A stretch of DNA of 64,000 nucleotides from Alphaproteobacteria bacterium (GCA_030696155.1 JAUYSY010000029.1:4059-68058); one strand, 5' to 3'; counted from the first letter of the stretch, positions 25,475 to 28,006 are shown. The notes: generated by a model from the sequence alone, not told the origin. Translations and numbers: made by a program.

Positions 25475-28006
25475 TTAATGTGAAGAAGCTAGCGCATCAA
25501 CAAAAGTTTGAATGGTTCTAAGGCGTCCTGCTTCTACTGTATTGCCTGCGCTAGGGTGTTGTATATGCATAGGCAAAACCATGTCGCCAATATTAAATTT
25601 TACGCGTACGGCTTCACCAGGTGTAATATAAGCTTCTTTATCAACCAAACTTAAAAGACGTGATAAATATTTGGTCATTTTACGCTTTTTAAGTTTAGGT
25701 TTTTTGAGTTCTTCAACTAACCTATCAATTTTTATTTTTTTTTGTGCAGATTCTTGATCTTCAATTTCATCTTGGTTGAGAGGATTAGCATCCTGCTTTA
25801 ATTTTGTTGAAGGATATTTTTTCCAAGGTTCATAATCTATTTCAGAAGATAAAGATAATGTTTTTGTTGAGGTCTCTATTGGTGTTTGATTACTATCAAC
25901 AAAGCAATCATCTGGCTCTGTCAAATCAACTTGTTCATCATCAGAAAAAATAGGAATCGTATCGCCAGATGATGAATCCTCATCGTTAGGATTGATGTCG
26001 AACTTATTATTTATAGAATGCTCATATAATGATTGATGTTCTAAAATTTTTTGAGTAATTGAATGATGAAAAGCAGCGTCTTTTGATCCAAGTCGTTTTC
26101 CAATTTCAAAATAGTGATGTGCTTCAGCATAATTTGAATGTAATAATTCCATAAACCCAAGCAAAAAATATCCTTTTTTTTCATCATGTTTATTATATTT
26201 TAAATCTACAACTTTTAGTAAAACTTCTTTTACTTCGTCATATTTTAAGTCTTCTAGATAATAAATGCACAAGCTGGCATAGGGAATAAGAGCGTTATGT
26301 GAACCAAAATCAATTGCCTTTTTAAAGTAATATGCTGTTTCTTTATAATTTTTTTCTTGTAAATAAATTGACCCTAATTCTAATGCAAAAACTCCTTTTG
26401 TTTTTTCTATATTTTCGAATGGGATAGGATTAAGAAGGAGATCTTCTTCTAAAAATAATTTTATATATTTTTGAGTATGTTCATTTTTTTTATCTAATGT
26501 TTCGTGAAGCCAATCTGGATTTGATAAAATTTGGCATATAATAAATAAATTTGTGGAAGTTGGGTCTAGTTCATATGATAATAATGCCCAATTATAGGTT
26601 TCAACACAATATGAGTTGTCGTTTGTGTTTAAAAAATATATAAGACCAACAAGCGTTGCATATTGTAATAATTTTTCATGATTAGGCAAGTTGTGCATCA
26701 ATGAAAGATTAATGATTTTGTTGAAATTTGCAGCAAATGAATTGTCAATGAGGTTAAATTGTTTCTTAACAAGTCCATCAAAAAAATAACAACTTGATAT
26801 TTCGTTAATTAAATATTCAATATTATCCCTTGTTTTACATTGTTCAAACAAGGAGGTATATAAGTTTTTTAATTCTTCAGTATTTTTTTCATGTTGCCGT
26901 ATAATTTTAGACAACATGAATCCGCAATTTATATTGCCTAAACGATACCCTATCTCAGCATAATTAGCTGATTCATAATATTTTTTGCCTAACATAAAAG
27001 TTTCTGAGAGCCATTCCAAGGCGTTGACATTACCAAGACAAGCTAAATGTTGCATAGAAGTAAGATCAAAATGGATTAATGGAGGTTTGTTTTGAGGTGA
27101 AAGATCGTCCAAATGACTCACTTCATTTGTGTATAATATAGCCATTTGCAATTGAAGTTCTTCATTGTTTATTATTTCTTTATTATCTTTATAAAAACTT
27201 ATAATTTTTTGTATAGTTTTTATTAAGAATTTGTATTTTGGTTTTATATTTCCAAAATATTGAAAAAATAATGCTAATTTATCTTCAGAAATATTGCTTA
27301 TTTCTTCAATTGCTTCTAAATCTCCATAACCAACACTAAAAAAAAGTAAAGAATAATATATAAAATCAATCCCTTGAGCGAACAAAATGTCATAATTGTT
27401 TCTAATGTCTTCGTAGGTTTCTTGCAACTGATTTAAATCAATTAAAATTACGTATCGTGTTGCAAGATTTATAAAAAATGCTTGCAACGCATTAATGTTT
27501 TTTATTTTTTCGTGTGTTAAATAGGTGTTTTTATTTTTCAGTAGATCTTTTCTTAGAATTGAAAAAGCTCGTGTTGAGCCGTCATTTGATAATTTGTGAA
27601 GTGCTGTTATTGTAGACTTAATTTGATCGCCTTGTTTTGTTATAGATTTTTCTAATTTTCTTACTTCTTTTATAAGTTTTTTATTTTTTTTATCATTTAT
27701 TAAGTTTTGATATTTTTTTTCATCTTGTATTAAAGATCTATAATTTTTAGCAGGTGCTATATATTGTTTTTCAATAAAATTGCCTAAAACTGTTTTAGAA
27801 TCATAAAAAGTTTTTTTCCGAATATCCTTTGGTAAATGATCGAATTGTGCTCCTTTTGTACCTTGCTGCGTCAAAATTTGTAAAAAAGCACGTGCAATTA
27901 AATTATTATTATTCTCTACATAAGATTCTTTGAAATACTGAAAAGCTTCTTGATCATTGCCGTCCTCATAAGCATTAATGCCGTTCATTAAGGGATTTGC
28001 AAACAC
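25475..28006 (-). CDS. Large hypothetical protein with Sel1/TPR-like repeats, acidic tract and basic KKRK patch (candidate eukaryote-like effector)
   Basis: 843 aa, no signal peptide. Sel1-like units (YAEIGYRLGNINCG..., YAEAHHYFEIGKRLGSKDAAFHH...). Asn/Lys-rich. No housekeeping family recognised. Start uncertain (GTG 28006 or ATG 27988). Confidence 0.5.
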   Translation of the reverse strand: MFANPLMNGINAYEDGNDQEAFQYFKESYVENNNNLIARAFLQILTQQGTKGAQFDHLPKDIRKKTFYDSKTVLGNFIEKQYIAPAKNYRSLIQDEKKYQNLINDKKNKKLIKEVRKLEKSITKQGDQIKSTITALHKLSNDGSTRAFSILRKDLLKNKNTYLTHEKIKNINALQAFFINLATRYVILIDLNQLQETYEDIRNNYDILFAQGIDFIYYSLLFFSVGYGDLEAIEEISNISEDKLALFFQYFGNIKPKYKFLIKTIQKIISFYKDNKEIINNEELQLQMAILYTNEVSHLDDLSPQNKPPLIHFDLTSMQHLACLGNVNALEWLSETFMLGKKYYESANYAEIGYRLGNINCGFMLSKIIRQHEKNTEELKNLYTSLFEQCKTRDNIEYLINEISSCYFFDGLVKKQFNLIDNSFAANFNKIINLSLMHNLPNHEKLLQYATLVGLIYFLNTNDNSYCVETYNWALLSYELDPTSTNLFIICQILSNPDWLHETLDKKNEHTQKYIKLFLEEDLLLNPIPFENIEKTKGVFALELGSIYLQEKNYKETAYYFKKAIDFGSHNALIPYASLCIYYLEDLKYDEVKEVLLKVVDLKYNKHDEKKGYFLLGFMELLHSNYAEAHHYFEIGKRLGSKDAAFHHSITQKILEHQSLYEHSINNKFDINPNDEDSSSGDTIPIFSDDEQVDLTEPDDCFVDSNQTPIETSTKTLSLSSEIDYEPWKKYPSTKLKQDANPLNQDEIEDQESAQKKIKIDRLVEELKKPKLKKRKMTKYLSRLLSLVDKEAYITPGEAVRVKFNIGDMVLPMHIQHPSAGNTVEAGRLRTIQTFVDALASSH

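Follow-up and report, generated by a model that had tools for sequence, protein, structure and literature searches.

A predicted Sec-exported, fast-evolving Sel1-like-repeat protein with a conserved basic C-terminal module, encoded beside tRNA-Arg in an uncultured alphaproteobacterial lineage

The window analysed here is a 64-kb stretch of DNA (64,000 nucleotides, nt) from Alphaproteobacteria bacterium (GCA_030696155.1 JAUYSY010000029.1:4059-68058), and it contains a gene, designated X, that encodes a large helical-repeat protein ending in a distinct basic module. The gene order is an orphan of 669 amino acids (aa), an MFS transporter, a SpoU-type methylase, X, tRNA-Arg, gpt and LepA, and the tRNA-Arg(ACG) gene (25302..25378, minus strand) is located on the same strand as X, 96 nt downstream of its stop codon. 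In a preliminary description X was delimited as an open reading frame (ORF) at 25475..28006 (minus strand), which is open without interruption and encodes 843 aa from a GTG codon. This ORF is not a chance one, because 2.5 kb are open at a G+C content of 27% (against 37-40% in the flanks), homologues exist and the ratio of nonsynonymous to synonymous substitution rates (dN/dS, or omega) is ~0.3. The frame was real as first drawn and 18 codons too short, as its homologues start further upstream. The true coding region is probably 25475..28060 (minus strand), comprising 861 codons and a stop codon and starting at an ATT; the frame is open back to a TAA codon and the encoded peptide matches the N-termini of the homologues. 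Residues are numbered throughout from this ATT codon, so that the GTG at 28006 is codon 19 and the ATG at 27988 chosen by the Prokaryotic Genome Annotation Pipeline (PGAP) is codon 25. The public annotation is accordingly an 837-aa "hypothetical protein" read from the internal ATG. Neither the internal GTG nor the ATG is preceded by an obvious Shine-Dalgarno sequence when read by eye.

Read in frame, the 18 codons that precede the GTG specify the signal-like N-terminus found in all intact homologues, which begin MLNNRFFLIVFTYFFVGPVFA-NPLMNGINAY, with a likely cleavage site between MLNNRFFLIVFTYFFVGPVFA and NPL. Translated upstream of the GTG, the window reads TAA-ATT-CTA..., that is, stop-I-LNNRFFLIVFTYFFVGPVFANPL, and the resulting Sec-type signal-like sequence is (I)LNNRFFLIVFTYFFVGPVFA followed by NPL (27998..28060, minus strand). 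Residues 1-21 consist of a basic n-region, a 15-residue hydrophobic core and V-F-A before the likely cleavage site, so that the features of a Sec type I signal (basic n-region, hydrophobic core, small-x-small) are all present in (I/M)LNNR-FFLIVFTYFFVGPVF-A, followed by N. The assignment was made by inspection and hydropathy; across the six N-termini that are complete in the alignment, the maximum Kyte-Doolittle hydropathy over 12 aa was 2.0-2.7, and a lipobox Cys was absent from the signal-like sequence on inspection. The same N-terminus begins P0002, P0003, P0004, P0005 and P0007, and a divergent hydrophobic signal-like start is found in P0006, P0009 and the L090 protein. The first 60 codons of the window gene and of its counterpart in the close relative L001 differ at few nonsynonymous sites (proportion of differences, pN, 0.02) compared with synonymous ones (pS 0.35), and among the 21 signal codons about seven differences are synonymous and one is nonsynonymous, plus the start codon (counted by eye). 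Judging by these counts, codons 1-60 are under strong purifying selection, and the stretch has therefore been translated through most of the divergence. The signal is thus predicted to direct export by Sec and to be cleaved. The preliminary description had regarded the product as cytoplasmic-type with no signal peptide; that statement fell with the extended reading frame. The deposited 837-aa model omits the signal-like sequence, a point of use for annotation even if the interpretation given below fails.

The first codon itself is unusual. Positions 28058..28060 read ATT in the window assembly and ATG in L001, and an in-frame TAA lies immediately before the ATT. Over 30 nt around the start the two sequences are the same except for the ATT and one synonymous change, TTA>CTA, in codon 2. 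The ATT could be a non-canonical start, a recent start loss or a consensus error of the metagenome-assembled genome (MAG).

Downstream of the signal-like sequence, the structure model is all-alpha from residue 22 to 330, with long helices at 88-121 and 127-182, and forms helical hairpins from 330 to 540. A block at residues 545-700 (25961..26428, minus strand), which holds YAEAHHYFEIGKRLGSKDAAFHH, was recognised from the model and by profile-profile comparison. It comprises ~3.5 helix-turn-helix units that recur every 36-37 residues, with a local predicted local distance difference test (pLDDT) value of 74-87, the model helices being 551-568, 572-584, 588-600, 607-620, 624-640, 644-656 and 660-684. 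In the model, the tandem two-helix units of 36-44 residues that characterise a Sel1 solenoid appear in residues 545-700 only. With hhalign, the family profile matched P0022, a bona fide protein with four Sel1 repeats (Pfam Sel1 E 6.3e-33), at a probability of 95.8% and E 7.5e-9 over residues 531-683, and region 545-700 alone matched it at 97% and E 1.2e-10. Weak matches to consensus tetratricopeptide repeat (TPR) proteins (CTPR) also fall in residues 545-700. A possible degenerate Sel1-like pair, holding YAEIGYRLGNINCG, lies at residues 330-415 (26816..27073, minus strand; model helices within 333-407), where hhalign was marginal (E 0.0046 against a Sel1 protein and E 0.0018 against the protein's own 545-700 block). 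In Pfam scans, the window protein had no Sel1 (PF08238) match at E<=10, two of eight family members matched Sel1 under the gathering score (best E 0.0074), and the L090 homologue matched at E 0.68. The TPR models behaved similarly, with 18 bits for TPR_CcmH_CycH (cutoff 42) and 13 bits for TPR_1 (cutoff 27.8) in the window protein, and TPR_2 matches in six of eight members that were all sub-threshold (best E 5.9e-4). Profile-profile comparison therefore supports one Sel1-like block, and the 330-415 region is marginal.

The Sel1-like block is followed by an acidic, Ser-rich linker (residues ~685-765; 25766..26008, minus strand) with a pLDDT of 24-40 and an isoelectric point (pI) of 4.4, which is predicted to be disordered and is indel-rich and poorly conserved among homologues. 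It contains a conserved EPWKKY motif (residues 744-749; 25814..25831, minus strand), whose P and W are invariant in alignment A5 and whose counterparts in the distant homologues P0008 and P0009 are RPWEKY and EPWKKY. In the model a Lys-rich helix separates the motif from the C-terminal module, whose N-terminal edge is formed by a basic patch, KKPKLKKRK (residues 786-794; 25679..25705, minus strand); the patch is semi-conserved and is absent from P0009. The acidic Asp/Glu/Ser tract, the KKPKLKKRK patch and the distinct C-terminal module named in the preliminary description are thus all present, and the overall picture given there holds: the protein is large, is built of helical repeats that include one or more Sel1-like blocks, and carries an acidic linker, a basic patch and a C-terminal module set apart from the rest. 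The "several Sel1-like units" also claimed were borne out for the YAEAHHYFEIGKRLGSKDAAFHH block (hhalign probability 96-97%) and are marginal for the YAEIGYRLGNINCG unit. A TPR/Sel1 profile scan and structure prediction had been proposed as checks: the scan gave sub-threshold Pfam matches and one block detected by profile-profile comparison, and the prediction gave helical hairpins with Sel1-like two-helix units in 545-700.

The conserved basic C-terminal module (residues 791-861; 25478..25690, minus strand; pI 10) was defined from alignment A7 and the model, and it is the part of the protein that can be recognised throughout the family. In the six-sequence A7 there are eleven invariant positions, namely L, G, R, H-x-Q-H, G-N, G-R and F, and the most distant members of this alignment are 23-30% identical. 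Modelled alone from a seven-sequence alignment, the module gave a pLDDT of 70, a predicted template modelling score (pTM) of 0.52 and the topology helix, three strands, helix. Structure comparison of this model matched the HicA structures 4p78_D (score 5.9; 2.1 A over 55 of 66 positions), 6g26_E (5.8; 56 aligned), 1whz_A (5.5; 58 aligned), 5yrz_D (5.1; 53 aligned) and 6hpb_C (4.4; 51 aligned), and the other top structure matches were helical bundles fitting the long helices. [quoted passage not shown] The hhalign alignment places the invariant Arg of the family on the catalytic His of HicA with a score that is not significant; the aligned position reads GEAVR, GEGVR, GNGSR or GAGSR in the family and G-S-H in HicA. 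A conserved His is the catalytic residue of HicA (PMC9424270). Because the hhalign scores against HicA are non-significant, homology of the module to HicA is unproven and stands as a fold-level hypothesis. Among the 38,880 PHROGs families only phrog_8887, annotated "toxin", was matched, weakly and in the same register in four proteins (E 0.1 for the window protein, 0.2 for P0004, 0.0068 for P0009 and 0.008 for the L090 protein). No paper naming phrog_8887 was found in the literature, and tblastn of three modules against 50,697 phage records returned nothing meaningful. The sole PDB match of the C-terminal profile was Gemin7, a protein with the Sm fold, at E 0.54; this candidate was set aside, the match being non-significant and the model not an Sm barrel.

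The family to which X belongs is very small. About 12 relatives were found among 15 billion proteins, all in one unclassified, uncultured alphaproteobacterial lineage, and a search of 5.8 billion proteins returned five relatives only. A HMMER profile search of 1.84 billion representative proteins recovered six members (P0002, P0006, P0007, P0008, P0009 and P0010) and 27 further matches confined to residues 540-720, nine of which were scanned and proved to be repeat proteins of the TPR or Sel1 type; P0058 came from a word-indexed search that used a wider profile. The architecture is kept in homologues at 22-28% identity. One of the distant relatives is an 827-aa homologue (L090, 8631..11114, minus strand) that has the full architecture and a C-terminal module reading PGAGSRSKISLGKGHRRTFHKQHKSKWGNKMEPGRLKDLRRFLEK; the LepA of that relative is 81% identical, and its gene for the homologue is 1.5 kb from LepA, among different neighbours (Lnt, a response regulator) and with no tRNA. 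The GTDB representative genomes contained no relative of the protein, and their LepA matches were at <=74% identity. A metagenome scan for the C-terminal motif gave no match, and a second gave 47 pattern matches, none of them a family member by tblastn. Eight weak metagenome matches were inspected and were unrelated, six of them looking GAF-type by eye. LepA is <=~77% identical to any protein outside a few uncultured relatives, and the nearest named LepA proteins among 5.8e9 proteins are from Rhodospirillales and Stellaceae MAGs (~76%). The window contains no paralogue of X. X is lineage-restricted and, as described next, fast-evolving, as host-interaction factors often are.

The neighbours of X are nearly identical in the window and L001, with aa identities of 99.4% for the MFS transporter, 98.4% for the SpoU methylase, 98.7% for gpt and 99.7% for LepA; X itself is 60.5% identical. 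For the flanking genes dS is 0.14-0.27, dN 0.002-0.008 and omega 0.01-0.04, compared with a dS of 0.80, a dN of 0.26 and an omega of 0.32 for X, whose dN is thus ~30-100x that of its neighbours. In 60-nt bins of DNA identity, a hyperdivergent block extends over 25445..27862 (no strand assigned), within which most bins are at 0.57-0.87 and two that contain indels drop to 0.40 and 0.48. On the upstream side, as far as 27863, identity is 0.87-0.93, and it recovers to 0.93-1.00 just short of the tRNA; the block is thus sharply bounded at 27862 and 25445, the first boundary falling within the gene, after ~codon 66. For L003, the dS to the window is 0.04 for X and 0.26 for LepA. The L001 allele is 75% identical to those of L086/L088 and 61% to that of the window, although the L001 flanks are closest to the window. 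Such mosaic divergence along 6 kb points to frequent homologous recombination in the population, and the codon and identity data taken together indicate fast evolution with allele replacement by homologous recombination at X. LepA (22562..24367) has 99.5-99.7% protein identity and a dS of ~0.26 against both L003 and L001, and gpt has a dS of 0.10-0.14.

These data bear on the proposal that X encodes a housekeeping envelope scaffold, a periplasmic TPR/Sel1 protein in the manner of ExoR, EnhC, CpoB or LpoA that organises a cell-wall or signalling complex. Its fixed place among housekeeping genes in all close relatives fits such a role, as do the signal-like N-terminus, the predicted TPR/Sel1 fold class and an architecture kept in a relative whose LepA is 81% identical; a dN this far above that of the neighbours, 60% identity beside flanks at 99%, about a dozen relatives in 15 billion proteins without a curated-family match, and a 5' end disrupted in some strains do not, and we consider the proposal decidedly unlikely. 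The preliminary description had named a conserved housekeeping scaffold present in all relatives as the finding that would speak against its own interpretation, and half of that picture was found: X is at the same locus in all close relatives, and it is not slowly evolving.

The position of X was also examined for signs of acquisition. The gene order given above is the same in every related contig covering these genes (L001, L002, L003, L085 and L086), with LepA adjoining gpt in L001, L002 and L003; L088 keeps X, tRNA-Arg and gpt and then diverges. The tRNA-Arg gene is syntenic in the relatives whose contigs reach that position, X is on its 5' side, there is no integrase ORF and no presence/absence polymorphism of X among the related contigs. 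Genomic islands insert at the 3' ends of tRNA genes. A tRNA-linked genomic island was ruled out by the synteny, the 5'-side position and the lack of an integrase; no search was made for direct repeats of the tRNA end. The adjacency to tRNA-Arg(ACG) and to a nested miniature inverted-repeat transposable element (MITE), as first described, was located in both cases. The reading of tRNA adjacency as a sign of acquisition is contradicted by the shared gene order, and the presence/absence comparison suggested at the time found X at the same locus in L001, L002, L003, L085, L086 and L088; the adjacency should not be read as an island.

The hypothesis from which the analysis started, that X is a signal-less, cytoplasmic, eukaryote-like Sel1/TPR effector on a tRNA-Arg-linked island, delivered by a type IV secretion system (T4SS) or similar machinery through a C-terminal signal, can be judged against the same evidence. 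It accounts for the Sel1-like content, the conserved basic C-terminus, the low G+C content, the lineage-restricted family and the missing ATG in this assembly, which would leave a product from the GTG or ATG without the signal sequence. It is opposed by a signal-like sequence that is conserved, intact here and under purifying selection, by the syntenic location 5' of the tRNA with no integrase and no presence/absence polymorphism, by the want of an obvious Shine-Dalgarno sequence at the internal GTG/ATG, and by a scan of ten window proteins in which no T4SS gene was seen. None of the nine TPR/Sel1-type matches examined stood out as a eukaryotic homologue, which is weak evidence, the library being without names or taxonomy. 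We consider this hypothesis very unlikely, and candidate host-effector status is unproven.

The region upstream of X contains the nested palindromic MITE (28171..28425, no strand assigned), which is located in the SpoU-X spacer ~100 nt upstream of the start. Its outer inverted repeat is at 28178-28208 / 28387-28417 and its inner one at 28241-28280 / 28340-28379, and copies of the inner element, which belongs to a GC-rich palindromic family, occur near 9862-9901, 36455-36591 and 53366-53482. As an insertion into the promoter-proximal spacer the MITE is private to this sequence, the same spacer of L001 lacking it. Over the 100 nt that precede the start, the window and L001 are nearly identical, and between the MITE and the start lies a promoter-like sequence, TTGACC-18-TACATT (28093..28122, minus strand), found as a consensus match; its hexamers are also present in L001, with two substitutions in the spacer, and promoter-like sites in the region are no more numerous than in shuffles. 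In other members the 5' end of the gene is itself altered. It is replaced by unrelated sequence in L003 (1..137; also in L004) and in L088 (1..100), whose contigs end within 25-137 bp; L088 has an in-frame stop upstream of the residual ORF, and the L003 genome carries SpoU and MFS on another contig. These observations point to strain heterogeneity or to a repeat inserted precisely at this locus, and perhaps to recurrent inactivation of X. The 5' end of L088 is a GC-rich palindrome (CCACGGGGCAAGCCCCATGG), and the tail of P0007 (…SETPRGKPRG…), a 5' fragment, appears by eye from its GC-rich composition to be translated MITE-like sequence. MITE-like elements may hit the coding region of the gene in relatives too.

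X could accordingly be an incipient pseudogene in this genome, with its start lost and a MITE inserted upstream. The ATT start with an in-frame TAA just before it, the nested MITE ~100 nt upstream that L001 lacks, two related loci that are 5'-truncated and the P0007 fragment reading into MITE-like sequence all speak for decay. The 861 codons are nevertheless still open at 27% G+C, the omega between the window and L003 is 0.29 and so no higher than the family average, the signal codons differ from those of L001 almost only synonymously, and the promoter-like hexamers are intact. AUU can initiate translation in bacteria, as in infC, and a single MAG consensus base may be an assembly error or a minority variant. 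On balance we regard decay as unlikely; the ATT start makes it probable that expression of the exported form is reduced or off in this assembly.

Other low-G+C orphan genes were noted in the window, in which at least four, X included, are scattered among housekeeping genes. The 669-aa orphan (31395..33404, plus strand) has a hydrophobic signal-like start, a PPPPPPLPP run, two similar ~38-aa repeats (…LQGQFDKLKSAKDRELAPQK… / …FQGQLGKLKPAKDRELPPKK…) and no Pfam match; it is syntenic and fast-evolving, with 86.6% identity to L001 (flanks 99%), an omega of 0.29 and 54% identity to L085. An 842-aa ORF (54937..57465, plus strand) of 26-27% G+C has a signal-like N-terminus (MKKFFFPLVYLSLCGPLVSA followed by S) and short tandem repeats of SDQLxLTxxKxNNE; it has no Pfam match, is a singleton cluster among 15 billion proteins and is unrelated to X despite its similar size. 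A 433-aa ORF (50142..51443, minus strand) of 28% G+C has no Pfam match.

Taken together, the results are best accommodated by a Sec-exported, fast-evolving Sel1-type scaffold that carries a constant C-terminal module and faces a changing partner, a reading to which we give about even credence. The product would be a precursor of ~100 kDa that is exported by Sec and belongs to a very small, lineage-restricted family. Its predicted coiled-coil-like helices, followed by a predicted alpha-solenoid with the Sel1-like block, would form a protein-binding scaffold, and the basic module of ~70 residues would supply a constant activity, most likely the binding or cleavage of RNA or of a phosphate-rich ligand. 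That activity would act through the invariant Arg and the H-x-Q-H / G-N / G-R constellation and not through the His of HicA, and the site of action would be outside the cytoplasm, in the periplasm, at the surface or in released form. The scaffold may face a cell that is host or prey, or else a competitor or a phage, and it is proposed that the central 2.4 kb evolve fast and are swapped between strains, with the ends conserved, because this partner keeps changing. The reading frame, its conserved signal-like start, the Sel1-like block, the domain layout, the synteny and the hyperdivergent, mosaic alleles are observations; that the protein is exported and cleaved, what its module does and which partner it meets are inferred. 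Exported or surface proteins that work at an antagonistic interface typically show this pattern of divergence, which does not distinguish between host, phage and competitor.

The same conserved ends and hypervariable, recombining centre are typical of surface antigens and receptors, and X could instead encode a surface or periplasmic coat or shield, variable through phage, predator or immune-like recognition, in which the module is an envelope anchor binding lipopolysaccharide (LPS), peptidoglycan or an outer-membrane protein and has no nucleic-acid activity. The Sec-type signal-like start is as expected for such a protein; three of the eight close loci or alleles examined have a disrupted 5' end or have lost the ATG, which looks like on/off variation; and DipA, a Sel1-like-repeat protein anchored at the surface, depends on its C-terminal domain (PMC3694160). 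The target has, on the other side, no lipobox, beta-barrel or known anchoring domain, the invariant polar R, H-x-Q-H, N and R look more like an active or ligand site than an anchor, and the predicted fold of the module matches HicA toxins. We regard this alternative as rather unlikely.

Several results count against the preferred reading of an exported scaffold with a constant module. The signal-like sequence was called by eye and hydropathy, with cleavage following as a prediction, and no Pfam or NCBIfam model reached threshold, whether the whole protein or the C-terminal module was scanned. The evidence for the fold of the module is a model built from seven sequences with a pLDDT of 70; Foldseek against PDB placed E. 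coli HicA at rank 2 with E = 2 and returned nothing significant; and the Pfam HicA family (PF07927) was matched neither by three C-terminal modules at E<=10 nor by eight members at E<=1. The hhalign E values of the module were 0.14 against E. coli HicA and 0.22-0.23 against an alignment of five HicA sequences taken from PDB, an invariant Arg stands where the canonical catalytic His would be, and canonical HicAs match phrog_353 and phrog_38117, not phrog_8887. With disrupted 5' ends in L003 and L088 and an ATT start here, some strains may be losing the gene or be able to do without it. Omega is <1 throughout and positive selection is not demonstrated; a dS of 0.8 in the block implies that part of the divergence is old and imported and not necessarily a product of positive selection. 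The analysis covered the 64-kb window and short related contigs; beyond Sec, a scan of ten window proteins turned up no secretion-system gene, and neither a partner nor a host was found.

If the exported-scaffold reading is true, X would be a clean natural example of an antagonistic-interface gene in an uncultured alphaproteobacterial lineage, and its core, at 60% identity in a fixed position beside neighbours at 99%, would mark what the lineage interacts with. The module offers a conserved stretch of ~70 residues with an obvious candidate active site. Its most novel element would be a HicA-derived warhead, for which the grounds are a medium-confidence model and weak profile matches. A bolder proposal, which we think improbable, is that X is the founding example of a new exported class in which a diversifying, recombination-shuffled Sel1-like scaffold delivers a constant, highly derived HicA-fold module that binds or cleaves RNA into or onto another cell, be it a protist host, prey or a competitor; the His would have become Arg, H-x-Q-H would be a new site, and the fold of a toxin-antitoxin toxin would have been domesticated as a Sec-dependent effector warhead without an immunity protein. 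Were the module a HicA-derived RNA-binding or RNase domain carried on a Sec-exported scaffold, toxin-fold recruitment would extend from Gram-positive polymorphic toxins (PMC9424270) to an architecture free of immunity genes.

Comparison with HicA (PF07927; PDB 4p78, 6g26, 1whz, 5yrz, 6hpb) shows a likeness in the order of motifs, G-x-G-S-R in the family against G-x-G-S-H, then L/V-P-x-H, then G-R-L-K-x-I against G-T-V-K-S-I, and both are basic. They differ in that there is no significant sequence or profile similarity, that the module has a family-specific insertion, H-x-Q-H-x(3,4)-G-N, and that it has no HicB partner; no small HicB-like ORF was found in the window or in the L001 to L088 loci, where the neighbours are tRNA-Arg/gpt and the SpoU methylase. 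HicA is a free-standing cytoplasmic toxin of ~60 aa, whereas the module is the end of an 800-residue protein that is predicted to be exported.

HicA domains at the extreme C-terminus of secreted multidomain toxins are documented in the S8-PTS BetaH toxins and in an Rhs toxin (PMC9424270), and X resembles these in having a module with a predicted HicA-like fold at the C-terminus of a large protein predicted to be exported. The BetaH and Rhs HicA domains share ~50% identity with the HicAs of toxin-antitoxin systems, retain the catalytic His and come with immunity genes; the module of X is undetectable as HicA by sequence, is without the His and has no adjoining immunity gene. In polymorphic toxins the warhead varies and the N-terminus is constant, whereas in X the centre varies and the C-terminus is constant, so that the polymorphic-toxin arrangement of constant N-terminus, variable toxin and immunity gene is not seen in X. 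It is on this comparison that X might be taken for a diffusible or contact-dependent antibacterial toxin of polymorphic type with a C-terminal HicA-like RNase warhead. Besides the documented precedent, that proposal can draw on the signal sequence, the long repeats, the linker, the small basic alpha/beta domain and the weak match to a PHROG "toxin" family; it has to contend with the reversed polarity, the replacement of the catalytic His by Arg, the finding of no HicB, Rhs, PAAR or pretoxin domains in Pfam scans, and the lack of a downstream immunity gene: wherever the contig of a relative covers the position, the stop is followed by the tRNA-Arg (96 nt away) and then by gpt. We judge it highly improbable.

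Among Sel1-like-repeat proteins, the comparators named in the preliminary description, Legionella LpnE and EnhC and the Helicobacter Hcp proteins, are exported and have a role in host interaction, and the Hcp proteins have a disulfide per repeat. X has in common with them a helical Sel1-like repeat scaffold. They consist almost wholly of canonical Sel1 repeats, whereas the repeats of X are a minority of the protein and degenerate; none of them has a HicA-like C-terminal module, and no homology beyond the repeat fold was detected. LpnE, EnhC and LidL are Sel1-like-repeat proteins secreted by the Legionella type IV system (PMC3694160). The closest functional analogue with experimental data is DipA (FTT0369c) of Francisella tularensis, which has a Sec signal peptide, Sel1-like repeats and a C-terminal domain needed for function, and which is an extracytoplasmic, surface-exposed, lineage-specific interaction factor (PMC3694160). 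X has the same order of signal-like start, Sel1-like block and distinct C-terminal domain, and the signal-like start brings X closer to DipA, and also to Hcp and LpnE/EnhC, than a signal-less reading would. No sequence homology was detected between X and DipA, and X differs in its length of 861 aa, in having one profile-supported Sel1-like block that fails the Pfam threshold, and in its additional long N-terminal helical region, acidic disordered linker and alpha/beta C-terminal module. In its conserved ends, divergent core and flank-incongruent alleles, X resembles hypervariable loci of the class represented by the Sel1-like-repeat msf family of H. influenzae (PMC4792463), and it differs from that class in being single-copy at one fixed locus, with no copy-number variation or paralogues in the window. 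X would thus be of a known kind, an exported Sel1-like-repeat interaction protein, and what is new in it is the undescribed C-terminal module and the unusually strong turnover of its alleles.

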